60,915 nt of DNA, taken from Thermodesulfobacteriota bacterium. GTDB lineage: Bacteria > Desulfobacterota > Desulfobacteria > Desulfobacterales > B30-G6. Both the position numbers and the translations under genes were made by a program. Location of the stretch: contig JBDLJD010000003.1 of the NCBI GenBank assembly GCA_039714495.1, forward strand, positions 1 through 60,915. Reading direction: 5' to 3'. Below are positions 2,122 to 20,942 of the stretch, piece after piece. The notes under the pieces were generated by a model. The model saw only the letters and a list, made by a program, of their open reading frames with translations. It was not told the DNA's origin and ran no database searches. The number at the start of each line of letters is the position of its first letter. The stretch's first letter is position 1.

Positions 2122-2147
2122 GACGCAGAGGATTTGGTCCTGGCACA

Positions 2148-4957: not shown

Positions 4958-5212
4958 TTTCGCATAGCGATAATATATATTTCTATGTGTATAGTAGTTG
5001 ATTTAGAAATGTCAACATTTTTTTAAAATAAGGACATCACATGCAATGCAATAGTTATAACTTTAAAAAACTATTGACAAGGCAATAATACCAACATAGA
5101 TATTAACCGTATGTTGAAATATAATTTCACATAGCGATAAATATAGTCAGTCAAGGCCACTCGACGTCAATGTCAAATAAACCCAAAACTAATTGGAGAG
5201 GTGATAAAAATC
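4958..5212. promoter_or_regulatory. Bidirectional control region, copy A (paralogue of 23049-23297)
   Basis: AT-rich divergent intergenic region. It holds the inverted repeat CGCATAG(4961-4967)-N15-CTATGTG(4983-4989) and the box TTCACATAGCGATA (5126-5139). It is collinear with a second copy 18 kb away. Confidence 0.55.
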
Positions 5213-6679
5213 ATGAAAAAATTTAATTACAAAATCGAATTGTACCAGTATCTAGCGGAAACCAAGGGTAAGCTTTTTGAAATGGCCAAGAAAATTCCCG
5301 GACAAATTGGCATGCCGGATAATTTGTTGGGAACCTTTGGATTGTCCGGCACAATCTCCGAATGTCATGGCCTCTTGCGTAAAGCAATCGCTGATGAAGT
5401 TGAGAACGGACAGCGGAAAGTTATCAATAGTGGCAATCTTGATTTTGAAATCAGGAAGTTGGTTAAAAGTTACTACGGGGATGAGTACGATGCGGTTGCG
5501 GCAAGCACCTGTGAGGCCTTGCTGATGGTCGGTTTTGATACGCTTTTTTCACCGCCGGTTGCAGGCCGTGGTGAAAATTACCGCGCCCGTTATATCTCCC
5601 CCTATGAAAGACATGCTCACCATCATGCCGGTTACGGCAGACCCTTTCCGCCACGATATAAAGACATATTCGCCGATCGTGGCGTTACTGCCGGTGAATA
5701 TGGTTTTATGGGTAAGCGCCTGAATAACCTGGATACGATACTCGTGCCAATGGTTGGCGGGCGCTATGATTGTCACGGATTGAAATACCACCCTTGTCAG
5801 CTTCTCAGCAATGTAGACGCAAAGGCTACCGCCGAAGCAATTGCTGCGACAGCCAAACGCCATGAAGCATCTATTTCTGGTTTCACATCTCTGGGGTACA
5901 CAAATCCATCATATGGATATGGCGAAGTTGATGAAACGGGCGTACCTGTACTCCAAAAGGAAATTTCTAAGATTGCTCAGCAATACAACGTACCCTATAT
6001 TATCGACAATGCTACAGCGATTCCTTTTCAATGCGTTGATATTCGCAAAAGTGAGGCTGACTTGATGATGTTCAGCATGGATAAGTCAAGTGGCGGTACC
6101 ACTTGCGGCCTTGCAATAGGTAAAGAAGAGAGCATCGTACCTATGGCCCGCGCAATGGGGACGGCAGGGCCGCGATTCGGTGGCCTCATCTCGCATGCAA
6201 AGGCGATGTACGTTCAAGTAGACCCCGGCAAGGAATCCCTGTTAGGGTTGATCGCGACACTCAAAATTCTCATTGAACGCCAGGATCAATTCCGCAAAAA
6301 CTGTGATATCTTTTATGAAATTGCAGTTGATGAGTTCTCTAAAATCGATCAAGGCATTATGGAAAATGTTGCCATTAATAAAGACTATGGAAGTAGTGGT
6401 GTTGAAATCGATTATCAAGGAACATGGCGTGATGGAAAAATGGGTTGGCCCATCTTTTCAATCGAAGATATGTATGCCGGCACCTCATTGATCCAGACTG
6501 GTCTTAAGATGATGGGTATCATCCCGTGCTTGGCATATGATGCAAATATCAAAATGTCATTAGGGCTTGGCACCACCGATGAAAACGGAGACATTATCGA
6601 AGACACCACGCGGTGGGGTGTTCGTGGTTTGGCCAAACTTGTTGAATTGCTTTGCCGGCATTGCGGGATGATGGATTAA
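5213..6679 (+). CDS. SelA-like / fold-type-I PLP-dependent enzyme (unknown specificity)
   Basis: The motif FSMDKSSGGTTCGLAIGKEE resembles the SelA/DgaE-type PLP-lysine motif FSGDKLLGGPQAGIIVGK. Start placed at ATG 5213 (MKKFNYK), which has a GGAGAGG upstream and is conserved in the duplicated stump at 23298. Confidence 0.7.
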   Translation: MKKFNYKIELYQYLAETKGKLFEMAKKIPGQIGMPDNLLGTFGLSGTISECHGLLRKAIADEVENGQRKVINSGNLDFEIRKLVKSYYGDEYDAVAASTCEALLMVGFDTLFSPPVAGRGENYRARYISPYERHAHHHAGYGRPFPPRYKDIFADRGVTAGEYGFMGKRLNNLDTILVPMVGGRYDCHGLKYHPCQLLSNVDAKATAEAIAATAKRHEASISGFTSLGYTNPSYGYGEVDETGVPVLQKEISKIAQQYNVPYIIDNATAIPFQCVDIRKSEADLMMFSMDKSSGGTTCGLAIGKEESIVPMARAMGTAGPRFGGLISHAKAMYVQVDPGKESLLGLIATLKILIERQDQFRKNCDIFYEIAVDEFSKIDQGIMENVAINKDYGSSGVEIDYQGTWRDGKMGWPIFSIEDMYAGTSLIQTGLKMMGIIPCLAYDANIKMSLGLGTTDENGDIIEDTTRWGVRGLAKLVELLCRHCGMMD

Positions 6680-6783
6680 ATGTTGGCTGCTTCAGTGAGG
6701 TCAATCGATGATGCATTGAAGGCGTATATGAAACATCGAAAGGCTGAAATTCAGGCGAACTCCTCTATAAAAAGCGAGTTATA

Positions 6784-8052
6784 ATGGCAGATAGTAACGC
6801 GTCCCCCAAATCAAAGCGCCACGTAATTGTAATTGGCGCAGGAATCGTGGGCACTTGCTGTGCTCTCTATTTGCAGCGTGAGGGATTCCAGGTGACTCTG
6901 ATCGAAAAGAATAAGCCTGGTGTGGGCGCCTCTGGAGCTAATGCCGGCAATTTGGGCATCGCCTCGTGCGTCCCATTATCGACACCAGGTATGGTGTGGC
7001 AAGTGCCGGGCATGATGTTGGATAAAACTTCAGCACTGAAGTTGCGCTGGCGTTACTTTCCCGGGGCCATACCCTTTTTAATTCGTTTCATGCGTGCGGG
7101 GAATCGTAAAAAAGTAGAAGAAATCGCAGACGCACTGCTCTCCCTTATGAGTCGACTACATGATGCATACCAGCCCCTTCTTGACGACGCCAATGCCCAT
7201 GACCTGATAAAACAACTGGGCCGGGCCACTGTTTACCAAACCGAAAAAGGGCTGGCAGGTTGTAAATACTCCGTCGAGCTGCGGCAGCGCAGGGACATCG
7301 AAATAGAGATGTTATCCGGGGATGAACTGCGTGAGATCATTCCCGATCTGTCTCCTGAAGTCAAGGGCGGCTATCACATATTGAAGGCGATCCAGTGTTT
7401 CAATCCGGAAAGGCTGGTCGAGGTATTTGCCGAGCATTTGGTTCGACAAGGCGGATCACTGCTCTATGAAAGGGTTCATGGGGTCGAAGATGCAACGGAT
7501 GGCAAGGGATGTAGCGTGCTGACCGACCTGGGACGACACAGTGCCGATGCTGTAGTCCTTTCTGCCGGCGCATGGTCGACGCCCCTTGTGAAGCAGCTGG
7601 GAGCCAGGGTTCCAATGCATACTGAAAACGGCTATTATACCATGTTTCCCAACCCGGGCGTAAGGCTGCCGATTCCTATCACCGGTGGTGACTGTCACGT
7701 GGCCCTGGCTGAAATGGAAGGTGGGTTGAGGGTAAGCGGAATCGCCGAATATGTCCCGGTTGATGTTCCACCTAAATGGGAGTATTGTGAGGCAATTACC
7801 GAGCATACGAAGACACTGTTGCCGGGACTCAATGTCGAGGGAGCCTATAATGGTTTGGGCCCGCGCCCATCCATGCCGGACGGAAAACCGGTCATTGGTC
7901 GTTCACCTCGATACCCGTGGGCCTTTTTTGCTTTCGGCCACGGGCACGTGGGGTTGGGAACCGGCGCCATCACCGGCAGAATTATTAGCCAGCTTGTTGC
8001 GGGTCGCCCTCCAGAGGTTGACCTTGCGCCATTTCGACATGATCGCTTTTAA
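6784..8052 (+). CDS. FAD-dependent oxidoreductase, D-amino-acid dehydrogenase (DadA/DAO) family
   Basis: N-terminal dinucleotide fold VIVIGAGIVGTCCALYLQREGFQVTLIEKN. Length is 422 aa, and the C-terminal FGHGHVGLGTGAITG is typical of the DAO family. Confidence 0.85.
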   Translation: MADSNASPKSKRHVIVIGAGIVGTCCALYLQREGFQVTLIEKNKPGVGASGANAGNLGIASCVPLSTPGMVWQVPGMMLDKTSALKLRWRYFPGAIPFLIRFMRAGNRKKVEEIADALLSLMSRLHDAYQPLLDDANAHDLIKQLGRATVYQTEKGLAGCKYSVELRQRRDIEIEMLSGDELREIIPDLSPEVKGGYHILKAIQCFNPERLVEVFAEHLVRQGGSLLYERVHGVEDATDGKGCSVLTDLGRHSADAVVLSAGAWSTPLVKQLGARVPMHTENGYYTMFPNPGVRLPIPITGGDCHVALAEMEGGLRVSGIAEYVPVDVPPKWEYCEAITEHTKTLLPGLNVEGAYNGLGPRPSMPDGKPVIGRSPRYPWAFFAFGHGHVGLGTGAITGRIISQLVAGRPPEVDLAPFRHDRF

Positions 8053-8118
8053 TTAGAATTAACTATTTTGCTTAAACCCATTCAACATGAACTATATTAA
8101 TAAAGGAAATCTTTCATT

Positions 8119-8892
8119 ATGACAACTCAAGAGAATCGCATTGGTATTGTCGGCTGCGGAACCATCGGGAGCCATATTGCCAGACGGGCACATGAACGTC
8201 AGTTTGCAAATGTAGACTTTATTTGCGATGTTGATCTAGACAATGCAAAAAAAGTTGCCTCCAAGGCCAACCTTTTTTCAGACTTGAAACAGGTTCATGA
8301 ACACGATGTTGACTTGGTTGTGGAAGCGGCCAACGCTGATGTCATGCGCGAAATCGCCATCGATGTTTTATCTAAGCGGAATTTTATGCCGTTTACCATG
8401 ACGGCCTTGGCTGATGATGAATTCCGCAAGCAAATCAGGGAAACTTGCCTTACAGCCGGAACCCGATTGTTCATTCCCCATGGCGGCATTCTCGGACTCG
8501 ACGGTGTCTTTGACGGTCGTCATGTTATAGAGGAACTGACGGTTACCACAACCAAGCATCCGAAAAATTTCGGTCTTGACCCGACCATCAAAGGCACTAT
8601 TTATGAAGGGCCCGTGCGCGGAGCGTGTGAGAAATATCCCCGCAATGTTAACGTGCACGCCGCATTTGCACTTATGGGGCTGGGATTTGACAAAACCCGC
8701 AGCGTCGTAATCGCTGATCCTGAAACCAACCGCAATACGATTGATATTCATGTCAAAGGAGAGGGATTGGAATGGAACCTGACGATCGTCAGCATCCCCG
8801 TAGGGTTGGTAACCGGTGCCTACACGCCGGAATCTGCCGCCTCATCGGTTGCACGGGTCCTGTGCGCCGATTATGATATCGTATTAGCTTGA
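8119..8892 (+). CDS. Aspartate dehydrogenase (NadX)-like NAD(P) oxidoreductase
   Basis: IGIVGCGTIGSHIA Rossmann start, plus YPRNVNVHAA and VVIADP motifs that match my recollection of Thermotoga L-aspartate dehydrogenase (FPRNINVA, IVADP). Length is 257 aa. Confidence 0.8.
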   Translation: MTTQENRIGIVGCGTIGSHIARRAHERQFANVDFICDVDLDNAKKVASKANLFSDLKQVHEHDVDLVVEAANADVMREIAIDVLSKRNFMPFTMTALADDEFRKQIRETCLTAGTRLFIPHGGILGLDGVFDGRHVIEELTVTTTKHPKNFGLDPTIKGTIYEGPVRGACEKYPRNVNVHAAFALMGLGFDKTRSVVIADPETNRNTIDIHVKGEGLEWNLTIVSIPVGLVTGAYTPESAASSVARVLCADYDIVLA

Positions 8893-8952
8893 TGCTCAAC
8901 TGAATTTGGTTTTTACGTTTCAATAACGTTTATCGTTTGAAAGATACAGCAT

Positions 8953-10647
8953 ATGCATTATGACATCATCATTGTTGGTGGCGGCTCGGCAGGTTGTGTG
9001 CTTGCCAACCGGCTTTCGGCCCGTTCTACCAATAACGTTCTCCTTGTAGAAGCCGGCAAGGACACGCTTCCGGGATTGGAACCGGCCGAGGTAGTGGATG
9101 GCTTTTCCGCCACAGCCTATTTTAATCCGAATTGGATCTGGAATGACCTGCGCGTTCATGTTCACCCCCAGCCACCGGGCCAACCACTTCCTAAGGCCAA
9201 GAGCCGCTATGAACAGGCGCGCATCATGGGTGGGGGGTCCTCCACCAACGGTCAAATGGCGGTCCGTGGTGCTGCTGCCGACTATGATCGATGGGGGGAG
9301 TTGGGGGCCAAAGGCTGGAACTGGGATAATGTCCTGCCATATTTTCGGAAGCTGGAGCGGGATATGGATTTTGACGGGCCCGAGCATGGCAAGGATGGGC
9401 CCATTCCCATACGCCGCATTTTTCCGGAGTTGTGGTCAGGCCTCACCCGGGCAGCAGGCGAGGCGTTCCACTCAGCCGGATATGAATACCGGGATGACAT
9501 TAACAGAGAGTTAGTCGAATGCTATGGCCCGTTGCCGTTCAATAACGCCTATGACCGGCGTGTTTCCGCCGCAATGGGGTATCTGGACCCGGTAACCCGT
9601 CAACGTCAAAACCTGACCATACTTCCCGAGACTCAGGTCAAAAAAATTATTACCGAAGGATGCAGGGCCGTGGGTATCGAGGTTTCATCTATTCGAGGAG
9701 ATAAAACCTATCGGGCCAAAGAAATTATCATATCGGCCGGAGCGCTTCATTCACCGGGCCTGCTGATGCGATCGGGTGTGGGCCCGGCGGAACACTTGAG
9801 GACACTGGGGATCGAGGTGGTATCTGATAGACGAGGTGTGGGGCAAAACCTGATGGATCATCCCATGGCGGCGATTACAGGCTACTTACCCAAAGCGTAC
9901 AGGTTAAATCCCGACACTCCCCGGCACATACAAGGAAATCTGCGCTATTCATCCGGGCTCGAAGGGTGTCCGCCGGTGGATATGCAGACCAATATCATCC
10001 AACGCTCAGGCTGGCATCCCTTAGGCAAACGGTTGGGAACACTTTCGCTCTGTGTCTTCAAGCCCTTTTCACGCGGCCAGGTTACCTTGGCTGCGCCGGA
10101 TTGGAATGCCGAGCCCAATGTGGAATTTAACTTGTTATCCGATCAACGCGACATGATCCGTTTGATGAATGCTGTTCGATTCGCCATCTCATTGATAGAT
10201 CATGAGGCCTTAAAAAAGGCCTTTCGGGATCCCTTCCCGGCCAGTTATTCGGAAAGGGTCAGAAAGGTGACCAAGGTCTCTTTCCAAAATTGGGTGGCCA
10301 CCAGTATCCTGGGTTTTCTTATGGAAGGGGGAGGGACTATGCGCCGTTTTCTTATCCGCAATGTAATCACCCTCGGCGATACCCTCAAAAAGATCTTAGC
10401 CGATGACGTCGCCCTGGAAGCCTACCTTCGGCGAACCGTATTTGGAGATTGGCACCCCACCAGTACCTGTAAAATGGGGTCAAACGAGGATCCGCTGGCA
10501 GTAACCGATGAACAAGGCCGCGTTTATGGTGTTGACGGACTCAGGGTCGTGGATGCATCGATTATGCCCGAGATTCCCTCCGGGAACACCAATATTCCAA
10601 CCATTATGATGGCTGAAAAAATAGCGGATGACATGCTTGCGGTTTAA
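8953..10647 (+). CDS. GMC-family flavin oxidoreductase (choline/alcohol dehydrogenase-like)
   Basis: YDIIIVGGGSAGCVLANRLS N-terminus, GGSSTNGQM, and a C-terminal HPTSTCKMG ... VVDASIMP GMC signature. Confidence 0.92.
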   Translation: MHYDIIIVGGGSAGCVLANRLSARSTNNVLLVEAGKDTLPGLEPAEVVDGFSATAYFNPNWIWNDLRVHVHPQPPGQPLPKAKSRYEQARIMGGGSSTNGQMAVRGAAADYDRWGELGAKGWNWDNVLPYFRKLERDMDFDGPEHGKDGPIPIRRIFPELWSGLTRAAGEAFHSAGYEYRDDINRELVECYGPLPFNNAYDRRVSAAMGYLDPVTRQRQNLTILPETQVKKIITEGCRAVGIEVSSIRGDKTYRAKEIIISAGALHSPGLLMRSGVGPAEHLRTLGIEVVSDRRGVGQNLMDHPMAAITGYLPKAYRLNPDTPRHIQGNLRYSSGLEGCPPVDMQTNIIQRSGWHPLGKRLGTLSLCVFKPFSRGQVTLAAPDWNAEPNVEFNLLSDQRDMIRLMNAVRFAISLIDHEALKKAFRDPFPASYSERVRKVTKVSFQNWVATSILGFLMEGGGTMRRFLIRNVITLGDTLKKILADDVALEAYLRRTVFGDWHPTSTCKMGSNEDPLAVTDEQGRVYGVDGLRVVDASIMPEIPSGNTNIPTIMMAEKIADDMLAV

Positions 10648-10675
10648 AACGAACTTGTAATGAGGGGAAAATTAG

Positions 10676-12571
10676 ATGAATGAACAATATCCCGGCGGTT
10701 ATAACGGAAAAGTATTACGCGTCAGCCTAAGCACCGGATCTATCGAAAGCGAGGCCATTGACAGCCGGTTTTGCCGAAAATATATAGGCGGTGCAGGCTT
10801 TATCGCCCACTACCTTTTAAACGAAACCGAACCCGGAGTCGATCCATTGGGACCGTTGAATAAATTAATATTTGCAACCGGACCGCTTACAGGTATTGCG
10901 CTAGGGGGGTGCGCCCGTCACACAGTTGGTTCGAAATCACCTTTGACCGGTGGAATTGTCAAATCAGAAGTGGGTGAACATTGGGGATTTCAATTCAAAC
11001 GCGCCGGTTTCGATGCGCTAATTATCGAAGGACAGGCAAAAAGGCCGGTGTATCTCTGGATTTACAATGGAGAAGCCGAAATCAGGGATGCCGCCCATTT
11101 ATGGGGTAAAAGCACAAAAGAGACCCAGGATACTATTCGGACTGAGCTGGACGATCCCAAGATACGGGTGGCGATGATTGGTCCGGGAGGTGAAAACAAA
11201 GTCCACTATGCATGCATCATGCATGGCCTGTCTAATGCTGCGGGTCGCGGCGGGCTCGGTGCCGTGATGGGTTCCAAAAACCTGAAAGCCGTGGCGGTGA
11301 AAGGAAATCGTTTTCCGGCCATTGCAGACAAAAGTTACTTCCAAGAGTCAGCCAGATGGCTTAAGGAGAACATGAGCCTTGTAAAAGGCTTTTCTGAACT
11401 GGGCACCGGGGCTAGTATGGAAAACTACGAGGCCCACGGATATCTGCCGGTGCGCAACTTCAGGGATAGTGCCTTTCCCGATGTTGTCAAAATTTCTCCC
11501 AAGGCCATCAAAGAGACCATCGGCATCGGGATGAAAGGGTGTTTTGCATGCCCGGTTAAATGTAAGAAAGTAGTGGAAGTTACCCACCCCTATTCGGTAA
11601 ACAGCGAATACGGCGGGCCGGAATACGAGACCCTTGGCGCCCTTGGTTCTGCTTGTGGCGTGACGGATTTAAAAGCGATCGCCAAGGGAAGTGAACTTTG
11701 CGACGCTTATTCCCTCGACACCATATCGACTGGAATGACAATTGCTTTTGCGATGGAGTGTTTTGAAAAGGGGATATTGACTTTAAATGAAACCGAGGGC
11801 ATTGAATTGAAGTTTGGCAACGCGGAGGCGATGCTAAAAACAATCGAAAAGATCGCCAACCGCGAGGGTATCGGAAATCTGCTGGCGCAGGGCAGCTTGA
11901 AGGCGGCTGAACATATTGGTAACGGAGCAGAAGCGTTTGCCATGCAGGTTAAAAGAATGGAGATCCCGATGCATGAACCCAGGCTTGGTAAAAGTTTGGC
12001 CTTAGGCTTTATGGTCAATCCCCATGGCGCCGATCACATGGACAGCTTGCTTGACCCGTTAAGAACCGGGTTTGGTGATAAACCTGAACTATCGTTGCCT
12101 GAGATGGTTCCTCTGGGCTACGGTCCGGTACCGTCAGACGATATCGGTCCCAAAACCGTAGCGTTGAACAGGCTTTTTCAAATAAAACGTTTTTTAGCCG
12201 ATTCACTTGTACTGTGCGATTTTTTGCCCTACTCTGTCTCTCAATATGTTGAAATGGTTGCGGCTGCTACGGGTTGGCAGACAACGGCCAAAGAGCTTTT
12301 TCGCATCGCTGAACGCATTCTTACCATGTGCCGTTTATATAATGTGGGCAATGGGTTCACCGACAAAGAAGACCGGCTCCCGGAGCGGTTTTTTTCGTTC
12401 CCAAAAGATGGGGCCGCCGCAGGTAAGAAACTTGATCGTGAAGAGATGGAGCGGGCCAAAAGATACTATTACACTTTAATGGGCTGGCATGAAAATGGCG
12501 TGCCGCGAGATGAAACACTGGATGAATTGGGAATAGATTATCCTGCTTACAGGGTGTCACCATCGGATTAG
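10676..12571 (+). CDS. Aldehyde:ferredoxin oxidoreductase (tungstopterin AOR family)
   Basis: 631 aa. The N-terminal GKVLRVSLSTGSIESE..GGAGFIAHYL pattern, the Cys motif CFACPVKCKK and the AOR C-terminal domain pattern are all present. Confidence 0.9.
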   Translation: MNEQYPGGYNGKVLRVSLSTGSIESEAIDSRFCRKYIGGAGFIAHYLLNETEPGVDPLGPLNKLIFATGPLTGIALGGCARHTVGSKSPLTGGIVKSEVGEHWGFQFKRAGFDALIIEGQAKRPVYLWIYNGEAEIRDAAHLWGKSTKETQDTIRTELDDPKIRVAMIGPGGENKVHYACIMHGLSNAAGRGGLGAVMGSKNLKAVAVKGNRFPAIADKSYFQESARWLKENMSLVKGFSELGTGASMENYEAHGYLPVRNFRDSAFPDVVKISPKAIKETIGIGMKGCFACPVKCKKVVEVTHPYSVNSEYGGPEYETLGALGSACGVTDLKAIAKGSELCDAYSLDTISTGMTIAFAMECFEKGILTLNETEGIELKFGNAEAMLKTIEKIANREGIGNLLAQGSLKAAEHIGNGAEAFAMQVKRMEIPMHEPRLGKSLALGFMVNPHGADHMDSLLDPLRTGFGDKPELSLPEMVPLGYGPVPSDDIGPKTVALNRLFQIKRFLADSLVLCDFLPYSVSQYVEMVAAATGWQTTAKELFRIAERILTMCRLYNVGNGFTDKEDRLPERFFSFPKDGAAAGKKLDREEMERAKRYYYTLMGWHENGVPRDETLDELGIDYPAYRVSPSD

Positions 12572-12580
12572 TTTGGTAAT

Positions 12581-14182
12581 ATGAAAAATTTCTCCAATGC
12601 CAAGCCATTAACCCTTGGCGCCGGCATCAATCAGCTTTTAGCCCAATATGGCGTGAATGTCGTTTTTGGCATTCCGGGCGTTCATAATATTGAATTGTTC
12701 AGAGGTGTTGAGGATTCGGGAATCGACCTGGTCTTGCCACGGCACGAACAAGGGGCTGGATTTATGGCGGACGGATACGCCAGGGCTTCCGGAAAACCGG
12801 GGGTATGCTTTGTGACCAGCGGACCCGGCTTAACCAATATCATGACACCCATGGGACAAGCCTATTCCGACTCCGTCCCCATGCTTGTCATCTCCTCTGT
12901 TCTACCTCGCCATGACAATCAGAAAGGCAAGGGAATTATTCATGAAATGCGGGATCAGGAAGCAGCAGCATCTACAGTTTCCTGTCTAAGCGTTACCGTT
13001 GACACGGATGCCGATATTTCACAATTCATAGGCCGTGCGTTTTCATTGTTCAGGGTCTGTAGGCCACGACCGGTTCATCTTCAAGTACCAACCGATCTAC
13101 TCAATAGTAAGGCCTGCACCTTAAAAAAGCTGAACTTGCCCGAAAGGCCTCATCCCTCTCCTGAATCGACTAAAAAAGCTGTCGCGATTTTAAGCGCATC
13201 GAAGCGTCCCATGATCATTGCAGGGGGCGGTGCATCTCAGTGCGGTTCAGAAATTCAGTCCATCGCCGGAAAGCTCAATGCCGCGGTGATAACCACCTAT
13301 GCCGGTAAAGGCATTGTGCCGGATGACAACCCGAGATGTCTGGGCACTGTTCTACCAAGAAAAGCGGCTCATAAATTTCTTAATTCCGCCGATACTGTCC
13401 TTGTTGTGGGCAGCGAACTGGCATTGAAGGATTTCCAGTGCACCTCCCTGCCGATAACCGGGCGCTTTGTGAGGATTGACATTGATCCGAATGTTCTGGC
13501 AGGTAGTGTGCCGGTTGATCTGCCTATTTTATCGGATGCCCGTGCAGCCCTTGCCGATATTGAAGCAAAACTGGATGCATCCAGTGCAGGCATTGAAATA
13601 AATGAGCTGGATCAACTGCGGCAAACCATAAGGGCAGAGGTAAGGAGAGAGTTTCCCGGTACCTATTCGTTCATTCAAGAGCTTCGAAAGGCGTTGCCGG
13701 ATGATGCGATCATATCCGCCGACATGACGGAACCGGCGTATTCGGCTAATGAATTGTTTCCGATGAAGCATCCCTCAAGCTGGCTTCATCCCGTCGGATT
13801 CGGTTCGCTTGGCTATGCAGTTCCGGCAGCAATTGGCGCCAAAATAGCGGTGCCGGAGCGGCCGGTGATCGCATTAGTAGGGGATTACGGTCTTCAATTT
13901 ACACTTTCAGAGATATCGGTAGCTGTCGAACGCAAGCTGGCGCTGCCTATTATTGTATGGAATAATGAAAAACTCTGGGCAATTGAACAGAACATGGTCA
14001 ATCAAAAAATAGCAACGACTCACTCTTGTTGCAAAAATCCTGATTTCCAAGAAATGGCCAGAGCTTTCGGCGCCCATGCAGCAATGCCTAAATCTTTGAT
14101 GGAGCTTGAAGAGATAATAGGTAAATCCCTAAAACGCGAAGGCCCTACAGTGATTGAAATCCGCCCAAACCACATCGATTAA
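12581..14182 (+). CDS. Thiamine-diphosphate-dependent enzyme (acetolactate synthase / sulfoacetaldehyde acetyltransferase-like)
   Basis: N-terminal GVNVVFGIPGVHNIEL with RHEQGAGFMADGYAR, and a C-terminal ThDP motif GDYGLQFTLSEISVAVERKLALPIIVWNN. Confidence 0.9.
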   Translation: MKNFSNAKPLTLGAGINQLLAQYGVNVVFGIPGVHNIELFRGVEDSGIDLVLPRHEQGAGFMADGYARASGKPGVCFVTSGPGLTNIMTPMGQAYSDSVPMLVISSVLPRHDNQKGKGIIHEMRDQEAAASTVSCLSVTVDTDADISQFIGRAFSLFRVCRPRPVHLQVPTDLLNSKACTLKKLNLPERPHPSPESTKKAVAILSASKRPMIIAGGGASQCGSEIQSIAGKLNAAVITTYAGKGIVPDDNPRCLGTVLPRKAAHKFLNSADTVLVVGSELALKDFQCTSLPITGRFVRIDIDPNVLAGSVPVDLPILSDARAALADIEAKLDASSAGIEINELDQLRQTIRAEVRREFPGTYSFIQELRKALPDDAIISADMTEPAYSANELFPMKHPSSWLHPVGFGSLGYAVPAAIGAKIAVPERPVIALVGDYGLQFTLSEISVAVERKLALPIIVWNNEKLWAIEQNMVNQKIATTHSCCKNPDFQEMARAFGAHAAMPKSLMELEEIIGKSLKREGPTVIEIRPNHID

Positions 14183-14272
14183 ATCCGATTATAATGGAAT
14201 AGTATTGGTAACCCTTGGTGTCTATTCGAGCTCTCCGCATTTCCGCCAAAAAGACACAAATCCGGTTTTGAT

Positions 14273-16057
14273 ATGATACAACAACAGAAAAAAACGTCTG
14301 CTAAACAGACAACCGCAACCGAAGCCCCCATTTTAGGGAGGCTTTTTCAACTGCTGAAGCCCTATTGGAAAACACTTACGCTCAGTGGGCTATTATTGGT
14401 TGGACGTGCCGGCCTGGAACTTGTACCGCCGCTGTTTCAGCGATCTATTATAGATGGTGTTATCGAAGACCGCAATTTGACACTTCTGGGAATTTTGATC
14501 GGCGCTCTCATTGCCATTTATGGTATCCAGCAAATTATCAACATAGGGGATAATTTTATCCGGCACGCGTTGGGCGAGAAATTCATTATGGATTTGCGCA
14601 TCCGCCTTTACGCATATCTGCAAAAGCTGTCACTTTCCTTTTTTGAAAAAACATCCACAGGCGAACTGATGTCACGGGTGACCAACGATCTTAACGCCCT
14701 GGAACATTTCGTGACCCATGGATCGGCTTTAACAGCAATCGATCTGTTACGGTTAACAGGTGGTTCAATCGTACTTTTCGTTCTGGATCCGCGATTAGCT
14801 GTGATCGTATTGATTCCCATACCGATATTGATCCTTGCGTTACGGCACTACAATCAGAAGATCCGGCCGGTGTACCGACGGGTTCGTGCCCGACTGGGAG
14901 ATCTGAACGCCAAACTTCACGACAACCTGTCCGGGATTCGCGTGATCAAGGCCTTTGCCAGGGAAGACCTGGAAAGGGAGCGCTTTGCCAAAGAAAGCGA
15001 GGAGTATTACCGAGCCCGAGTGAAAGGCATCCGCTACTGGTCCGTCTTTTTTCCGGGGATCCGCTTTCTTGGCTCAATGGGAACGGTAATTGTTCTGGGC
15101 GTTGGGAGCTTCATGGTGATTCATGGAGAATTGTCCCTCGGAACCCTGGTGGCGTTTTTGGCTTATGTTTCTTCTTTTTATGAACCACTCAACAGGTTGG
15201 CAGAGGTGGACAATACCTTTCAGCAAGCCATAGCAGCTGGTGAACGCATATTCGAACTTTTGGATGAGAAGTCTGATGTAAAGGATGCGCCGGACGCCAT
15301 GCCGCTGGCACCTATCTCCGGGGCGGTCAAACTGGAACATGTGTATTTTAAGTACGGAACCGGCAATGAAATTCTAAAGGATATTACTTTTACCATCGAA
15401 CCCGGACAAATGGTTGCTTTGGTAGGCCCGAGCGGTTCCGGCAAAACCAGTATCGCTAATCTGATTTGCCGTTTTTACGATCCAATTTCCGGGCAAATTT
15501 CTATAGATGGCACTCCGTTAATTCAAATCAAACTGTCTTCCTTGCGCCGTCAAATAGCAGTAGTGCTCCAGGACGCATTTCTTTTTAACAACACCATCGC
15601 CGAAAATTTGCGCTATGGAAAACCGGGAGCGACCGAAGCAGAGTTAAAAGCAGCAGCCACAATCGCTTATGCCCATGATTTCATAGACCAATTGTCTGCC
15701 GGCTACGAGACCGAGATAGGAGAGCGCGGAGTCAAACTAAGCGGTGGTCAAAAACAACGACTCACTCTGGCAAGAGCTGTGTTGGCTGATCCACGCATTC
15801 TCATACTGGATGAAGCGACCTCTTCGGTTGACGCCGAGTCTGAATATCTGATCCAACAGGCACTGGAAAAAGTGTTGCAAGGCCGAACCTCAATTGTGAT
15901 TGCCCACCGATTGAGCACGATTCGAAATGCCGATAAAATTATTGTAATCGATGAAGGACGTATCATTGAACAAGGTAAACACTCGGAACTTCTGGATTCG
16001 GGGGGACTGTACCATGAACTATACCATACACAAATGGAGTTGGCGTCAACCTTATAA
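14273..16057 (+). CDS. ABC exporter, fused permease/ATPase (MsbA-like)
   Basis: Six-TM N-terminal half, followed by Walker A GPSGSGKTS, LSGGQKQRLTLARA and ILILDEATSSVD. Confidence 0.92.
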   Translation: MIQQQKKTSAKQTTATEAPILGRLFQLLKPYWKTLTLSGLLLVGRAGLELVPPLFQRSIIDGVIEDRNLTLLGILIGALIAIYGIQQIINIGDNFIRHALGEKFIMDLRIRLYAYLQKLSLSFFEKTSTGELMSRVTNDLNALEHFVTHGSALTAIDLLRLTGGSIVLFVLDPRLAVIVLIPIPILILALRHYNQKIRPVYRRVRARLGDLNAKLHDNLSGIRVIKAFAREDLERERFAKESEEYYRARVKGIRYWSVFFPGIRFLGSMGTVIVLGVGSFMVIHGELSLGTLVAFLAYVSSFYEPLNRLAEVDNTFQQAIAAGERIFELLDEKSDVKDAPDAMPLAPISGAVKLEHVYFKYGTGNEILKDITFTIEPGQMVALVGPSGSGKTSIANLICRFYDPISGQISIDGTPLIQIKLSSLRRQIAVVLQDAFLFNNTIAENLRYGKPGATEAELKAAATIAYAHDFIDQLSAGYETEIGERGVKLSGGQKQRLTLARAVLADPRILILDEATSSVDAESEYLIQQALEKVLQGRTSIVIAHRLSTIRNADKIIVIDEGRIIEQGKHSELLDSGGLYHELYHTQMELASTL

Positions 16058-16103
16058 GCTTTCTTACAACAAATGATGTTATGGGGTTTTTGGAGATTAG
16101 CCA

Positions 16104-17309
16104 ATGGGTGATAAAAGGATATCGTCCAGAGTTTCATGCCTGGGGCAGTCAGGAATCCAGGCCGTTACCATAAAGGCCGGGCAGTTAAGACAAATGGGAA
16201 TAGACCTGCTCAATTTCGCCGAAGGCGAACCTGATTTCAGCACTCCCCAGCACATCAAAGATTCAGCTTATATAGCTATGCAAGAAGATTTTACCAAATA
16301 TACTGCTGTTGAGGGAATCGAAGAACTACGTAGTGCCATCTGCGAGAAATTGAAATATGAAAACAACGTTTACTACAATCCTTCGCAGATAATTGTCAGC
16401 AGCGGTGCCAAACAGGCTCTTTTCAATGCATTCATGGCCCTATGCGATAGAGGAGATCAGGTCTTGCTCCCGGTACCCTGCTTCAGCAGCTATATGGACC
16501 AGATTAAAATTACAGGCGCAACGCCGGTACTGGTTCCAACTGACAAGGCAAATAAATACAGAATTACTGCGAATGATTTGAGAAAACATTTCTCGCCCAA
16601 GGTAAAAGCGGTTGTACTCAATAGCCCCTGTAACCCTTCCGGGGCTGTTATTGAGCGTGATCATCTCGAAGAGATAGCTGAATTTGTTGTGGAGCAGAAC
16701 ATCTGGGTTATAACCGATGAAGTCTATGAAAAAATACTTCATGATAACAACGAATATATCAGTATCGCGTCTTTGGGTGAGGCCATTAAAAAGCGCACAA
16801 TAACCATAAACGGTTTATCCAAAACATATGCAATGACCGGCTGGCGATTAGGATACGCAGCCGGGCCGGAGGACATTATTGCCGCTATGGCTAAAATTCA
16901 GACACACGCCACCTCTAATGCGAACTCCATAGCGCAAAAGGCCGCTATTGCTGCGTTGTCAGGTCCACAGGAGCCGGCCAATGAAATGGCGGCTGCCTAC
17001 AGCCGTAGGATGGAACATGTGTACGAAGGCCTCAACTCCCTGCCTGGTGTCTCCTGCTTGCGGCCGGCCGGCGGGTTTTACGCGTTTGCATGCATACAAG
17101 ACCTATATGGGGCCCGATTTGGCAGAGAAACACTCACCAACGAGACGGAGATCGTTACTTTCCTTCTGACGGAGGCCAACATTGCCGTGGTTCCGGGTGA
17201 GGCGTTTTATTATCCAGGCTATTTTCGCTTTTGTTTTGCAACTTCGATGGATAATATTTCCAAGGGTCTTGATCGTATGGACAGGGCATTCCGGAAACTT
17301 GAATTTTAA
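16104..17309 (+). CDS. PLP-dependent aminotransferase class I/II (AspC-like)
   Basis: 401 aa. It has the PLP-lysine motif SKTYAMTGWRLGY and NSPCNPSG. Confidence 0.92.
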   Translation: MGDKRISSRVSCLGQSGIQAVTIKAGQLRQMGIDLLNFAEGEPDFSTPQHIKDSAYIAMQEDFTKYTAVEGIEELRSAICEKLKYENNVYYNPSQIIVSSGAKQALFNAFMALCDRGDQVLLPVPCFSSYMDQIKITGATPVLVPTDKANKYRITANDLRKHFSPKVKAVVLNSPCNPSGAVIERDHLEEIAEFVVEQNIWVITDEVYEKILHDNNEYISIASLGEAIKKRTITINGLSKTYAMTGWRLGYAAGPEDIIAAMAKIQTHATSNANSIAQKAAIAALSGPQEPANEMAAAYSRRMEHVYEGLNSLPGVSCLRPAGGFYAFACIQDLYGARFGRETLTNETEIVTFLLTEANIAVVPGEAFYYPGYFRFCFATSMDNISKGLDRMDRAFRKLEF

Positions 17310-17329
17310 CCTGATACGAGGGTATCACC

Positions 17330-18457
17330 GTGGAACTAACCTTAATGGAAGGTAACGAGGCCATTGGATGGGGAGCGATGGTCGCAGGATGTAACTTTTT
17401 TGCCGGCTACCCCATTACACCGGCCACAACAATTTACAACACCATGCTCAAGCTGTTACCGCCCAAAGGCGGTATCTGTCTTCAGGGTGAAGATGAAATC
17501 GCTTCCATCGGCTTTTGCCTTGGGGCTGCGATGGCCGGCATGAAAACCATGACGGCCACATCTGGCCCTGGCATCAGCTTGTACAGTGAGCAGATCTCAT
17601 TTGCCATCGGCAGCGAGATTCCCCTTGTAATTGTCGATGTTCAGCGATTAGGCCCTTCCACCGGGTCGGCCACCAAGGGGGCGGACGGCGACATTCAGTT
17701 CTTGCAGTGGGGCAACAGTGGCGGGTTGCCGGTGATTGTACTGGCCCCGGTGGATGTGAAGGATTGCTATGAACTCACCGTGCAAGCCTTCAATCTGGCC
17801 GAACAATACCGCTGCCCGGTGTTTGTCGCTGCCAATAAAGAGATCTCCATGACCCGTGAGACATTTTGCGTGGATGCGCTGGCAATCCCGCCCCTTGTGG
17901 AGCGCAAAAAAGCGGATCCGGCGAGTGATTTCTTGCCGTTCGGGGTCGGTGGTGATCAAAAGGTACCCGACTTTCTCCCCATCGGCGGTGATCGGATAGT
18001 GCGTCAGACATCATCGACCCATGGGACAAATGGCTATATCACCACCGACCCCGAGGAGATTGCCATGGTACAGGCTCGCCTTAAGGCCAAAATCACCCAG
18101 GCCGCTGCCGAATTTACCTACTTCGACGAATACCTTGTGCCGGATGCCGATACATTGGTGGTTGCCTACGGGGTAACGGCCCGTGCGGCCAGGGCGGCGG
18201 TTAAAAGATTGCAAAACAGTGTCCATAAAGCTTCACTGCTTGTACTGAAGACGCTGTGGCCAGTACCGGAAACACTGATTATAGAAAGGGCCGCAGCCTA
18301 CAAGCGGGTGGTCATGGCAGAAATGAATCTCGGGCAGTACGTTAGAGAACTTCAACGGCTGCTGCCCGACAAAGATATCGGTTTTATGGGACAGATGAAT
18401 GGCGAACTGATCAATCCCGGCCAGATTATAGAATTGATTGAGCATGGAGGTGGTTGA
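17330..18457 (+). CDS. 2-oxoacid:ferredoxin oxidoreductase alpha subunit
   Basis: GTG start. The GNEAIGWGAMVAGCNFFAGYPITPAT motif is typical of PorA/KorA. Its stop overlaps the next gene. Confidence 0.9.
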   Translation: MELTLMEGNEAIGWGAMVAGCNFFAGYPITPATTIYNTMLKLLPPKGGICLQGEDEIASIGFCLGAAMAGMKTMTATSGPGISLYSEQISFAIGSEIPLVIVDVQRLGPSTGSATKGADGDIQFLQWGNSGGLPVIVLAPVDVKDCYELTVQAFNLAEQYRCPVFVAANKEISMTRETFCVDALAIPPLVERKKADPASDFLPFGVGGDQKVPDFLPIGGDRIVRQTSSTHGTNGYITTDPEEIAMVQARLKAKITQAAAEFTYFDEYLVPDADTLVVAYGVTARAARAAVKRLQNSVHKASLLVLKTLWPVPETLIIERAAAYKRVVMAEMNLGQYVRELQRLLPDKDIGFMGQMNGELINPGQIIELIEHGGG

Positions 18458-18459
18458 GC

Positions 18460-19791
18460 ATGGATAGTCTTTTGAACGAAACGCGGCCTGCGGTATTCTG
18501 TCCTGGCTGTTCTCACGAAAGGGTATTGCATGCACTGGATCAGGCACTGACAGGCATGGGTTATGCCGGCAAGGATGTGGCCATCGTTACCGACATAGGG
18601 TGTTCCGGTCTTTTCGACACGTTTTTCAACACCCACGCTTTTCATGGTTTGCATGGCCGGGCCTTGACCTACGCCACCGGCATCAAGATGGCGCGTCCCG
18701 ACCTGAAAGTCATCGTCACCATGGGTGACGGCGGGCTGGGCATTGGCGGCGCACATGTGCTGAGTACCTGTCGGCGCAACATCGACCTCACCCTTTTGGT
18801 GCTCAATAACTTTAACTACGGTATGACCGGTGGACAATGTTCGACCACAACACCCCAGGATGCGGTGGTTGGTTCCGGTTTCCTGAACAAATTAGAAAAG
18901 CCTATTGATATATGCCAGGTGGCCGGAGCTGCCGGGACGCCATTTGTATCGCGAATGTCTACTTACCAGAAGGACCTTGTTGAACGGCTCAAAGAGGCCA
19001 TTACATTCGAGGGGTTTTCGTTGCTGGATATCTGGGGTATCTGTCCTGGACGCTACACTCGCCGCAATAAACTGACACCGAAGAACATCGAGGCAGACCT
19101 GGCACAGTTTCCTGATATGCCTGATTTCAAGTCCCAAAACGCGAGGACGGAGTACGGACGGGCCTACCGCCGGGAGGCTGCCAGGCTCGATACCCCCCAG
19201 GATCCGGTACGCATCGAACCCACCTGCATACCGCCCAGGGAAGGTCGCCAGGAGGTAGTTATTCTCGGCAGTGCCGGCCAAAGGATTATCACGGCCGGAG
19301 AACTGCTGTGCCTGGCCGGTGCATCCGCAGGCTGCCACGCCACTCAGAAAAACGATTATCCCATTACTGTCATGAAGGGCCACTCGGTCAGCGAAGTCAT
19401 TGTTGCCGATACGGAAATTGAATACACCGGGATAGAAGATCCCTCGGTGATCATCGCCCTTGCGCCCGAAGGCGTCAAACGGCGCAAGAAGATGCTGACA
19501 ACCCTTTCATCCGAATCCGTTGTCATCAAGGCCACCGGTATTGAGCTGCCTCCTTGCCGGGCAACCATAATCGAAATCGATTTCAAAGCTCACAAGATTA
19601 AATCCCGGGATTGGGCATTAGCGGCCCTGGTGGTTGCCGCCCGGCAAAACAAAGCATTGACCATGGAAATGCTCACGGCTGCTTTGAGATTGCGCTTTAA
19701 AAAGTCAGTGTTTGAGACGGCCATGAACGTAACGGAAAAGATCACTCTTGATGAACACGATTGTAAGGCACAAGGAACAAGCGTTTATTAA
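18460..19791 (+). CDS. 2-oxoacid:ferredoxin oxidoreductase beta subunit with a C-terminally fused gamma domain
   Basis: FCPGCSHERVL and the ThDP motif TMGDGGLGIGG mark the beta part. The C-terminal ~180 aa (VVILGSAGQRIITAGELL..KNDYPITVMKGHSVSEVIV) look like the gamma domain. ATG 18460 follows GGAGGTGG; an alternative TTG lies at 18454. Confidence 0.87.
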   Translation: MDSLLNETRPAVFCPGCSHERVLHALDQALTGMGYAGKDVAIVTDIGCSGLFDTFFNTHAFHGLHGRALTYATGIKMARPDLKVIVTMGDGGLGIGGAHVLSTCRRNIDLTLLVLNNFNYGMTGGQCSTTTPQDAVVGSGFLNKLEKPIDICQVAGAAGTPFVSRMSTYQKDLVERLKEAITFEGFSLLDIWGICPGRYTRRNKLTPKNIEADLAQFPDMPDFKSQNARTEYGRAYRREAARLDTPQDPVRIEPTCIPPREGRQEVVILGSAGQRIITAGELLCLAGASAGCHATQKNDYPITVMKGHSVSEVIVADTEIEYTGIEDPSVIIALAPEGVKRRKKMLTTLSSESVVIKATGIELPPCRATIIEIDFKAHKIKSRDWALAALVVAARQNKALTMEMLTAALRLRFKKSVFETAMNVTEKITLDEHDCKAQGTSVY

Positions 19792-19847
19792 GAGGCTGAC
19801 TCTGACCGGCATTCGGACCGAAGATAAAGAGGAGGAAAATAACGGGT

Positions 19848-20858
19848 ATGAAGAAGAAAAATTGCGGATCTTCTTTGGATTTCAAGGAAACAGCATCCAC
19901 CTTGCGAGCGGTGGATCGGTTGGAAATCATCAGTCTGCAGGACAACATGGTGGAATACCTCTGCACAACAGACAGGGAAAATGTACTTACCGCCGATAAA
20001 TGGGTCCAAGTAGATAAGGGGGAAGACCTGGTTCTACCTATGGCAGAACATGGCTTTTCCATGCTCATCCGCACATGGGCTGGTGAACAGGAACATGCAG
20101 TATTATTTGATACCGGCCAAAGTGAAAACAGCGTCATTGCTAATGCCGAAGTCATGAAACTGGACCTGAGAGAAGTTGAAGCAGTGGTACTTTCCCACGG
20201 ACACAGTGATCACTGGGGCGGGATTGCCGGCATCTTAAGAAAACTGGAAAGTAAAAATATACCCTTTGTAGTCCATCCCGATGTATTCAAAATCCGTGGA
20301 ATGAAGGAAAACAAAAAGATCATCAAGTTTACCCCGTTTCCCGCCAAAGAGCAGTTGGAATCTCTGGGTGCGCAGGTGATTGAGCACAAAACGCCGCTCT
20401 TTTTAGCCGAAGATACCATTCTGGTCATGGGCGAAGTTCCACAGGTCACGGAGTTTGAACACGGATTTTCAACAGGTCTGGTAAAAAAAGAGGGGAAGTG
20501 GGAACCGGAGTCACAGATGGCTGATGATAGAGGCATTGTCATTCATGTAAAAGATAAAGGATTAATTGTTATCACTGGTTGCGCCCATTCCGGCCTTGTC
20601 AATAATATGGAGTACGCTCGCGAGCTTACGTTGCAGAAGTATCCCATATACGCGGTCCTTGGTGGGTTTCATCTGGCGGGTAGTGAATACGAACAGTGGA
20701 TTACAGCAACAGTTGAGGCTGTGAAGAGTTTCAATCCTTCTTTTGTGATCCCTTCTCACTGCACCGGCTGGAAGGCCATGTATCGATTCGCGCAGGAAAT
20801 GCCCCAGGCTTTTGTCCATCCAGGCACCGGAAATCTGTACCGCTTTTTTTCCAGTTAA
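19848..20858 (+). CDS. MBL-fold metallo-hydrolase
   Basis: LSHGHSDHWGG (HxHxDH) motif, 336 aa, with GAGGAGGA upstream. Confidence 0.8.
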   Translation: MKKKNCGSSLDFKETASTLRAVDRLEIISLQDNMVEYLCTTDRENVLTADKWVQVDKGEDLVLPMAEHGFSMLIRTWAGEQEHAVLFDTGQSENSVIANAEVMKLDLREVEAVVLSHGHSDHWGGIAGILRKLESKNIPFVVHPDVFKIRGMKENKKIIKFTPFPAKEQLESLGAQVIEHKTPLFLAEDTILVMGEVPQVTEFEHGFSTGLVKKEGKWEPESQMADDRGIVIHVKDKGLIVITGCAHSGLVNNMEYARELTLQKYPIYAVLGGFHLAGSEYEQWITATVEAVKSFNPSFVIPSHCTGWKAMYRFAQEMPQAFVHPGTGNLYRFFSS

Positions 20859-20897
20859 TCTCTCCGGAGTCTAATTCTCCGCAGCTTGCTGCGAACA

Positions 20898-20929: not shown

Positions 20930-20942
20930 CTTTATTCAATAT

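Follow-up and report, generated by a model that had tools for sequence, protein, structure and literature searches.

In the arginine transaminase pathway of Pseudomonas aeruginosa (AruH-AruI-KauB-GbuA) and in the aspC-ilvB1 system of Sinorhizobium meliloti, a class I aminotransferase and a decarboxylase of the AruI subfamily are followed by oxidation of the aldehyde. AspC-type aminotransferases are known to be paired with AruI homologues, for example as aruH-aruI of Pseudomonas and as aspC-ilvB1 of Sinorhizobium (PMC7268258). The transaminase of S. meliloti accepts arginine, ornithine, agmatine and putrescine, IlvB1 prefers 5-amino-2-oxopentanoate sevenfold, and members of the AruI family are promiscuous (PMC7268258). 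Here we describe a row of eleven genes, g01 to g11, in a Thermodesulfobacteriota bacterium of the order Desulfobacterales, which resembles these systems in its aminotransferase, its AruI-subfamily decarboxylase and the aldehyde oxidation that would follow. The genes lie on a 60.9-kb contig (JBDLJD010000003.1), which was analysed over its whole length of 60,915 nucleotides and is called the window; it is contig C3 of a metagenome-assembled genome (MAG; GCA_039714495.1, here G000) of 4.6 Mb in 312 contigs. We tentatively propose, giving the idea somewhat less than an even chance, that the operon encodes an anaerobic form of the Ehrlich-type route by which arginine and ornithine are transaminated and degraded, put together from foreign and native modules. 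The proposal is based on the published aminotransferase-AruI pairs and on anaerobic routes that combine an aminotransferase, a decarboxylase and a tungsten-type aldehyde:ferredoxin oxidoreductase (AOR).

The operon differs from the arginine transaminase pathway in several respects. An AOR would take the place of the NAD-dependent KauB in oxidising the aldehyde, no guanidinobutyrase is encoded in the cluster, and the host is a strict anaerobe. The operon also adds genes for a DAO-family flavoprotein, an aspartate dehydrogenase (AspDH)-like protein, a GMC flavoprotein, a pyridoxal phosphate (PLP) enzyme, a 2-oxoacid:ferredoxin oxidoreductase (OFOR), an exporter and a metallo-beta-lactamase (MBL)-fold hydrolase. 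The four steps AruH/AruI/KauB/GbuA are not found as a set, because the aminotransferase gene is two genes away from g06, the decarboxylase gene, and the cluster holds neither an Aldedh nor an arginase-family gene.

Anaerobic phenylalanine degradation in Aromatoleum aromaticum proceeds through an aminotransferase, phenylpyruvate decarboxylase and AOR or Pdh (PMC6365974). The initial annotation had not recognised the gene set as a published pathway. Its core logic has been published, both as AruH-AruI-KauB and aspC-ilvB1 (PMC7268258) and as the aminotransferase, decarboxylase and AOR of Aromatoleum (PMC6365974). The eleven-gene combination is unique among the genomes that could be searched, and its chemistry follows known patterns. 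The Aromatoleum route has the same three anoxic steps, which are transamination, decarboxylation dependent on thiamine diphosphate (ThDP) and oxidation by a tungsten AOR. However, its decarboxylase belongs to another ThDP subfamily, and the operon has no downstream phenylacetate genes. The AOR of Aromatoleum is the three-subunit AorABC (10.1101/2023.01.23.525143). In contrast, the AOR of the operon is encoded by a single gene without AorA or AorC partners alongside.

Peptide fermentation in Pyrococcus and Thermococcus depends on aminotransferases, OFORs and AOR. The same aminotransferase, OFOR and AOR, with ferredoxin as the sink, are present here, and a similar row is found in a relative, G004. 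The archaeal genes do not form one operon with a ThDP decarboxylase, a GMC protein and a DAO protein. In the DauA/DauB system, which converts D-arginine to L-arginine in P. aeruginosa (DauA and Rid proteins, PMC5619798), an FAD-dependent D-amino acid dehydrogenase adjoins an NAD(P)-dependent amino acid dehydrogenase and both meet at a 2-oxo or imino acid, as g02 and g03 would. A further similarity is that Rid proteins and YheO-type regulators accompany loci homologous to parts of the operon. DauB belongs to the ornithine cyclodeaminase family, whereas g03 is AspDH-like, and g02 has no close relative among solved structures.

Gene layout, enzyme assignments and the proposed route

The window ORF list places the eleven open reading frames (ORFs), all intact and all on the plus strand, at 5213-20858. 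The intergenic distances from g01 to g11 are, in order, 104, 66, 60, 28, 9, 90, 46, 20, -4 (overlap) and 56 nt. This bears out the initial annotation, which had described eleven same-strand genes with gaps of up to about 105 nt. The start codon of g01 is the ATG at 5213 behind GGAGAGG, as in the initial annotation, because it is conserved in three leader copies. The GTG at 5201, chosen by the ORF lister, was rejected because it is not conserved in them. A terminator scan found no terminator-like site within the plus-strand gaps between g01 and g11. In consensus scans, promoter- and terminator-like sites were no more frequent than in shuffled sequence, and the two longest internal gaps folded no better than shuffles. 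The best sigma-70-like site of the control region in front of g01 is at 5097-5125. One strand, short gaps, one promoter region and the absence of an internal terminator call all fit a single transcript. The sequence is thus compatible with one regulated transcription unit, and we infer that g01 to g11 are co-transcribed. The coordinates of all features are collected in Table 1.

Table 1. Features of the operon and of the surrounding window, in order of position.
Feature	Position	Strand	Assignment and remarks
Polar-amino-acid ABC importer, divergent	2148..4875	-	Pfam and NCBIfam; control region in common with the operon
Importer ATPase	2148-2972	-	
Importer permease	2969-3946	-	
Importer binding protein	4006-4875	-	SBP_bac_3
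Control region	4876..5212	+	337 nt, divergent, common to operon and ABC importer; two operator-like sites, sigma-70-like site, Shine-Dalgarno sequence GGAGAGG
g01	5213..6679	+	Fold-type I PLP enzyme, uncharacterised highly conserved family; Aminotran_5 (weak); PLP lysine K295 in SMDK
g02	6784..8052	+	DAO-family FAD dehydrogenase; Pfam DAO
g03	8119..8892	+	Aspartate-dehydrogenase-like NAD(P) protein; Asp_DH_C and NAD_binding_3
g04	8953..10647	+	GMC flavoprotein; GMC_oxred_N/C
g05	10676..12571	+	Tungsten-type AOR; AFOR_N 260 and AFOR_C 402 bits, full length
g06	12581..14182	+	ThDP-dependent 2-oxoacid decarboxylase, AruI subfamily; TPP_enzyme_N/M/C, NF005712
g07	14273..16057	+	Half-size MsbA-type ABC exporter; ABC_membrane and ABC_tran
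g08	16104..17309	+	Class Ib aspartate-type aminotransferase; Aminotran_1_2
g09 and g10	17330..19791	+	OFOR; alpha, beta and gamma domains all present
g09	17330-18457	+	OFOR alpha; POR_N and PFOR_II
g10	18454-19791	+	Fused OFOR beta-gamma; TPP_enzyme_C and POR; 4-nt overlap with alpha
g11	19848..20858	+	MBL-fold hydrolase, uncharacterised subfamily; Lactamase_B, intact HGHSDH motif
Possible intrinsic terminator	20893..20936	+	Stem GACAAC/GUUGUC followed by a U-run; fold z = -1.7, 3' of g11; uncalled by the simple terminator scan
DUF6917 protein	22352..22858	-	Pfam; sole copy in the genome (whole-genome search); about 16 kb from g01
Second control-region copy and 5' stump of PLP gene	23049..23357	+	80% identical to 5139-5267

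Families were assigned by Pfam domain search and by NCBIfam models with curated cut-offs, and the sequences were compared with those of solved structures. Pfam confirmed every superfamily named in the initial annotation. Narrower names hold less well. The SelA-like protein had no SelA match, and the DadA-, NadX- and BetA-like proteins fell under the family cut-offs.

The proposed route is centred on g06. Its product passes the model NF005712 (5-guanidino-2-oxopentanoate decarboxylase, AruI) with 565.4 bits against a cut-off of 500, and its residues 10-530 cover positions 3-530 of the 536 in the profile. This predicted assignment is sharper than the generic "ThDP enzyme" of the initial annotation. 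The best solved relative of g08 is aspartate aminotransferase B (6F35, 328 bits). The closest solved relatives of the importer binding protein are binders of arginine, glutamine, lysine and ornithine (AncQR, AncCDT-1 and 3VV5). The best NCBIfam matches of the importer are cystine transporters, under the cut-off, and the second hit for the binding protein is a Lys/Arg/Orn binding protein. The substrate of the operon is therefore probably a basic amino acid, as the AruI subfamily of g06, the AspC-type g08 and the relationship of the binding protein to Arg/Gln/Lys/Orn binders together suggest.

Among solved structures g05 is nearest to 1AOR (421 bits), followed by FOR (306) and WOR5 (272). From its full-length domains and its closeness to characterised AORs, g05 is predicted to be an AOR in the strict sense. 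The alpha subunit of the OFOR, g09, scored 389 bits on NF006412 (cut-off 411), and no gene for a delta ferredoxin of the OFOR is present. The genome has a dsrA gene that passes the equivalog cut-off, and the weaker dsrA-family match just beside it is presumably dsrB. The presence of dsrA supports an anoxic setting for the operon.

We infer the substrate and the order of reactions as follows. A polar, probably basic amino acid such as arginine in its L or D form, ornithine or a closely related compound would be taken up by the divergent ABC importer. One or more of g08 (aminotransferase), g02 (FAD dehydrogenase) and g03 (AspDH-like enzyme) would convert it to the 2-oxo acid. Decarboxylation by g06 would then give an aldehyde, for example 4-guanidinobutanal or 4-aminobutanal. 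The tungsten AOR g05 would oxidise the aldehyde to the acid and pass the electrons to ferredoxin. The GMC protein g04 could supply the same aldehyde pool from the corresponding alcohol. The OFOR encoded by g09 and g10 might convert the 2-oxo acid of the amino acceptor, or that of the substrate itself, to acyl-CoA.

The assignments of the remaining genes are broader. The product of g02 is below the DadA cut-off (NF001933, 169 versus 383 bits), and its best solved relative is glycine oxidase with 73 bits, so that it has no close solved structure. The product of g03 is under the cut-off in all nine AspDH models (134-144 bits versus 184-267), and on TIGR03855 it scored 133.7 against a cut-off of 206.55. 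In an alignment with aspartate dehydrogenase of A. fulgidus (2DC1), g03 has, near residues 205-212, an isoleucine opposite the histidine of the NIHE motif and a histidine three residues later. The NIHE histidine of 2DC1 is, we presume, the catalytic residue. The mechanism of g03 may be other than that of aspartate dehydrogenase. The product of g04 is under the cut-offs for choline dehydrogenase/BetA (NF002550, 361 versus 605 bits; TIGR01810, 316 versus 732 bits), and the closest solved structure is 5-hydroxymethylfurfural oxidase (HMFO, 380 bits) and not choline dehydrogenase. The best NCBIfam match of g07 is to a "cyanophycin metabolism-associated" exporter. This name was not used because the score of 534 against a cut-off of 880 is barely above that of generic MsbA models.

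The PLP enzyme g01 has no match to the SelA family of Pfam (PF03841). Its AlphaFold2 model (pLDDT 84.7) is most similar in fold to SepCysS, SufS and SelA, with a TM-score of about 0.5 and 12-14% identity. By fold, the TM-scores are 0.38-0.40 for SelA and 0.44-0.52 for SepCysS and SufS, with identities of 11-14%. The likeness of the modelled g01 to SelA or DgaE-like enzymes is at the level of the fold only. Probably g01 is a PLP enzyme of the beta-elimination or replacement type.

Some of these features would also suit a sulfonated substrate such as cysteate or cysteinolic acid, with oxidation by GMC and AOR, aspartate-type deamination, ThDP-dependent decarboxylation and export by g07, or else an aromatic amino acid as in Aromatoleum. 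Cysteate is an analogue of aspartate, and an aspartate-type g03 and a class Ib aspartate aminotransferase, g08, are both present. The importer's matches to cystine transporters, the fold of g01, which is like that of C-S and C-Se lyase-type PLP enzymes, and the nearness of g04 to an aryl-alcohol oxidase point in the same direction. An exporter is a usual part of sulfonate pathways, and a sulfite reducer could make use of sulfite; dsrA is in the genome. The aminotransferase, decarboxylase and AOR are known together in the phenylalanine degradation of Aromatoleum (PMC6365974). However, g06 scored only 227-239 bits on the Xsc models (cut-offs 620-676), and it is placed in the AruI subfamily and not in the indolepyruvate/phenylpyruvate decarboxylase group. 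No sulfite exporter, sulfo-lyase or phenylacetate-CoA ligase is encoded in the row, and the idea is a matching of patterns. We regard a sulfonated or aromatic substrate as very unlikely.

Relatives of the operon genes and their origin

We compared the operon with 60 Desulfobacterales relatives, of which 3 share its genus, 11 its family and 46 come from other families of the order. In these genomes g01 had no homologue beyond chance, g03, g04 and g06 had none above 38% identity, and g05 had none above 51% and none in the genus. The co-conservation of the genes that the initial annotation had suggested looking for was seen neither in the 60 relatives nor around 80 homologues of g01. Its general reading survives, although the gene set is not co-conserved: an amino compound would be catabolised under anoxic conditions by removal of the amino group, decarboxylation or oxidation of the 2-oxoacid, and oxidation of the aldehyde. 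A DNA search with the whole cluster against 20 relatives found only the OFOR pair and the exporter. The OFOR pair is 73-78% identical in nucleotides and 76-84% in amino acids in a paralogue of the same genome (G000:C9) and in G017, G007 and G004. In G004 the genes for an AOR (38%), OFOR alpha, OFOR beta-gamma and an aminotransferase (39%) lie on one strand, and the AOR-OFOR-aminotransferase module is therefore native to the family. The row with the beta-gamma OFOR looks like a recurrent amino acid oxidation module of Desulfobacterales. OFOR pair loci are at 1248-7058 of L108 (G004:C106), 4210-11523 of L106 (G017:C77) and 9177-11574 of L105 (G000:C9). Orthologues of g07 with 72-74% amino acid identity are found in G008 and G009 of the same family, in unrelated contexts. 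The initial annotation had called the exporter unexpected; its close orthologues stand apart from such genes.

Homologues of g05 with 62-68% identity are many, and the named ones are from Desulfobacterales or Deltaproteobacteria. When orthologues of the AOR were used as anchors in 401 Desulfobacterota, there was one match (64%), in an unrelated neighbourhood. In contrast, the closest homologues of g01 (67-74%) are from Rhodospirillales MAGs of oxygen-minimum zones. Homologues of g06 are at most 51% identical among candidates scored from 5.8 billion proteins. The named ones are 5-guanidino-2-oxopentanoate decarboxylases, and the named organisms are mostly Alphaproteobacteria. A single-protein scan of metagenomes with g06 found no close relative (best 31%).

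A marine alphaproteobacterial MAG, G063, has homologues of g01, g02, g03, g04 and g06 on one 87-kb contig (G063:C13, JAJRRU010000004.1). Its ThDP (50%), DAO (49.5%) and GMC (57%) genes are adjacent. The gene for an NAD-type aldehyde dehydrogenase overlaps the GMC gene, at the place where the operon has its AOR gene. Nearby genes encode an IclR regulator, RidA, an aminotransferase of class I/II and a peptide-type SBP_bac_5 ABC importer. The PLP (70%) and AspDH-like (53%) genes are 24 kb away from this group. G063:C13 differs from the operon in having no OFOR, exporter or MBL gene, in having genes on both strands in two groups, and in its aldehyde dehydrogenase, SBP_bac_5 importer and IclR regulator. 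The GMC protein, which the initial annotation had also considered unexpected, is less out of place with its homologue beside ThDP, DAO and aldehyde dehydrogenase genes.

The PLP and AspDH-like genes of G063 adjoin genes for MttB, a dimethylglycine dehydrogenase (DMGDH)-like DAO-GCV_T fusion, a DgcB-like Fe-S protein and an electron-transfer flavoprotein (ETF). In this MAG (L012, 4083-17580) the genes for the MttB-family methyltransferase and a 587-aa B12-binding protein are next to those for the fusion, the Fe-S protein and ETF alpha, so that genes of corrinoid-type and flavin-type demethylation are side by side. In G061 a stretch of about 4.6 kb has AspDH-like (51%), PLP paralogue (37%) and DAO (45%) genes, all on the same strand; a 2-hydroxyacid dehydrogenase gene is between the first two, and M24 creatinase-like and SBP_bac_5 genes adjoin. 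Homologues of g03 with 50-53% identity adjoin PLP genes in G061, G062 and G063, and homologues of g02 with 45-50% identity are found beside PLP, AspDH-like, ThDP and GMC genes in alphaproteobacterial MAGs. In two Alphaproteobacteria, a GMC gene of the g04 type (53%) stands in one row with genes for an MsbA-type exporter (39% to g07) and a ThDP enzyme (28%) (L149, G390:C8, 832-10800; L150, G074:C2, 3670-10800), which is a faint echo of the exporter-GMC-ThDP association.

Judged by their best homologues, which are in marine Alphaproteobacteria and partly co-located, g01 to g04 and g06 look foreign. By the same kind of comparison g05, g07 and g09/g10 are assigned to the Desulfobacterota type. The GC content at third codon positions is 0.60 in g09/g10 and 0.46-0.58 in the other nine genes (seven at 0.46-0.51), and the genome mean is 0.64 with a standard deviation of 0.07. 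The value of the OFOR genes is typical of the genome. The full set of eleven genes was found nowhere among the genomes searched, in relatives or in other lineages. Only sub-sets recur: G063 has five of the genes, G061 has three, and G004 has the OFOR together with an aminotransferase and an AOR. The operon is apparently a strain-specific patchwork that was assembled horizontally from foreign and native modules.

Such a patchwork might be no single pathway at all. In that case a displaced PLP gene, the alphaproteobacteria-like g02 to g06, a native exporter, a native aminotransferase-OFOR pair and the MBL gene would have been placed together by chance rearrangement; they might share a transcript but would act on several substrates. 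The whole set is co-conserved nowhere searched, the exporter orthologues are in unrelated contexts, the OFOR genes differ from the rest in composition, and DUF6917, the usual partner of g01, is encoded 16 kb off by a truncated second PLP copy. The window also carries other scars of rearrangement. However, the genes are tightly spaced with a 4-nt overlap and show no internal promoter- or terminator-like signal above chance, and all eleven ORFs are intact. In addition, the enzyme activities chain chemically, and a single alphaproteobacterial contig again brings together homologues of five of the genes. A chance juxtaposition is improbable in our estimation.

Several points weigh against the arginine/ornithine transaminase reading. 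No guanidinobutyrase, ureohydrolase or 4-aminobutyrate aminotransferase is encoded in the operon, and the three arginase-family genes elsewhere in the genome are unlinked. Since no homologue found is more than 51% identical to g06 and the AruI family is promiscuous, the substrate could be another 2-oxo acid. The nearest solved relative of g04 is the aryl-alcohol-type oxidase HMFO, and g04 has no obvious role in an arginine route. Among 401 Alphaproteobacteria, GMC homologues (47-57%) occur in 19 other genomes without an operon-like context, G063 excepted, and AruI-type homologues (42-45%) occur without such a context in 11 others. The evidence from co-location is thin, as it comes from two or three MAGs. 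Finally, an operator-like motif and neighbouring MttB genes point toward methylated amines.

The PLP enzyme family, DUF6917 and the shared control regions

The g01 family is large. At least 400 genome loci matched, the mean column identity is 65%, and the lysine in SMDK is invariant. Among 80 loci of the family, about 70 have a DUF6917 gene directly upstream on the same strand, and no relative of g02 to g11 is near the PLP gene in these 80. Recurrent neighbours are RidA, YheO- and GntR-type regulators, a GIDA-like flavoprotein, a 606-aa protein with a B12-binding domain, a TAXI-TRAP transporter and DAO-type flavoproteins. These genes form a module that is widespread in anaerobes (Thermotogota, Atribacterota, Bacillota, Sumerlaeota and others; loci L021-L086, for example L021:8479-19000 and L043:9551-18600). 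It contains a YheO or GntR regulator, RidA, DUF6917, the 488-aa PLP enzyme, the GIDA-like flavoprotein and the 606-aa protein, in which the B12-binding domain is N-terminal. It further holds two unknown proteins of about 359 and 464 aa and often the TAXI-TRAP transporter and a DAO flavoprotein. The conserved residues of DUF6917 are P24, Y25, G122, G126 and H131. A role of DUF6917 as the sulfur acceptor of a desulfurase-like enzyme was rejected because it has no conserved cysteine. A literature search found no paper on DUF6917, and neither a solved structure nor literature was found for the PLP family of g01.

The DAO proteins associated with this module are 41-46% identical to the products of the DAO genes at 25049 and 26337 of the window and not to g02. 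These two genes lie in a racemase-dehydrogenase module at 23702-29618. In other phyla, PLP/DUF6917 genes are accompanied by the same types of DAO and Pyr_redox/BFD protein as this module contains, the DAO type in 14 of the 80 loci and the Pyr_redox/BFD type in 8. It thus seems that the PLP family was originally partnered here by this module and not by g02 to g11. Because the only DUF6917 gene and a PLP stump are located at the second control region, a PLP/DUF6917/DAO module was probably once present at 22-29 kb, and g01 now heads a different set of genes.

Another contig of the MAG, C136 (L006), is collinear over 1-11680 with the window over 1-6196 at about 87% nucleotide identity, including MttB, DUF3461, the importer and the PLP region, with DUF3461 inverted. 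The identity is 61% in intergenic sequence and rises to 96% inside the PLP gene, where C136 ends. Upstream, C136 has additional SBP_bac_5, M24 creatinase-like, DAP-epimerase-like and URO-D genes. The whole assembly holds no second close copy of g03 to g06. The two contigs represent either paralogues or two strains.

An operator-like motif, TTTC[GA]CATAGCGATA, matches four times in the window against 0.24 expected, and all four sites are within the two control regions. It is kept in the second copy of the control region (copy B) and in C136. The motif can also be written TTTC[GA]CATAGCGA[TA]A; its sites are at 4958-4972, 5125-5139, 23049-23063 and 23187-23201 of the window, the first two being those of the operon's control region, and at 3088, 10449 and 10610 of C136. 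The motif is paired in three places, upstream of the operon, of the racemase/DAO module and of the second PLP copy, and single before the DAP-epimerase-like/URO-D/MttB unit. No regulator gene is evident near the motif. Further matches in the genome, on C18, C90, C101 and C168, have one mismatch each and were taken as chance, since the backwards motif gave 5 hits as a control. The matches on C18 and C101 are inside ORFs.

The shared motif suggests another function for the operon, namely that it forms part of a regulon that serves the breakdown of a methylated amine or an osmolyte of the betaine type. MttB would demethylate the substrate, the GMC protein and AOR would act like BetA and BetB in oxidising an alcohol to an aldehyde and on to an acid, and the deaminating enzymes would finish the degradation of the demethylated amino compound. 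Besides the three places where it is paired, the motif is found on C136 between the M24 creatinase-like/SBP_bac_5 genes and the DAP-epimerase-like/URO-D/MttB unit. MttB and URO-D are 3.5 kb upstream in both copies. The G063 neighbours of the PLP and AspDH-like genes (MttB, the DMGDH-like fusion, the DgcB-like Fe-S protein and ETF) fit this function as well, and the order of aldehyde dehydrogenase and GMC genes behind a regulator in G063 resembles betI-betB-betA. However, g04 is far under the BetA cut-offs (316 versus 732 bits) and nearer to HMF oxidase, and the importer is of the polar-amino-acid type and not of the betaine type. Among the 80 loci, a single further genome has MttB close to a PLP gene. 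In addition, a control search with the reversed motif, one mismatch being allowed, also gave 5 hits, and individual sites may therefore have arisen by chance. We consider a methylated amine or betaine-type substrate unlikely.

The arginine/ornithine transaminase reading can be extended, doubtful though the extension is. A sulfate reducer may have taken up an aerobic-type block of alphaproteobacterial genes (PLP, FAD dehydrogenase, AspDH-like, GMC and AruI-type) and refitted it for anoxia with AOR and its native OFOR. The result would be an undescribed route for D- or L-arginine, ornithine or a marine nitrogenous osmolyte that starts with the PLP enzyme and is controlled together with MttB-type genes by one regulator binding TTTC[GA]CATAGCGATA. 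If this is true, the operon would be an example of an anaerobe rebuilding an imported aerobic pathway, in which deamination and ThDP-dependent decarboxylation were kept and the redox steps were re-plumbed to ferredoxin through AOR and OFOR. Marine sulfate reducers would also have gained one more way of consuming basic amino acids or related nitrogen-rich solutes. The most promising by-product of this analysis is the PLP/DUF6917 family, from which more is to be discovered than from the operon.

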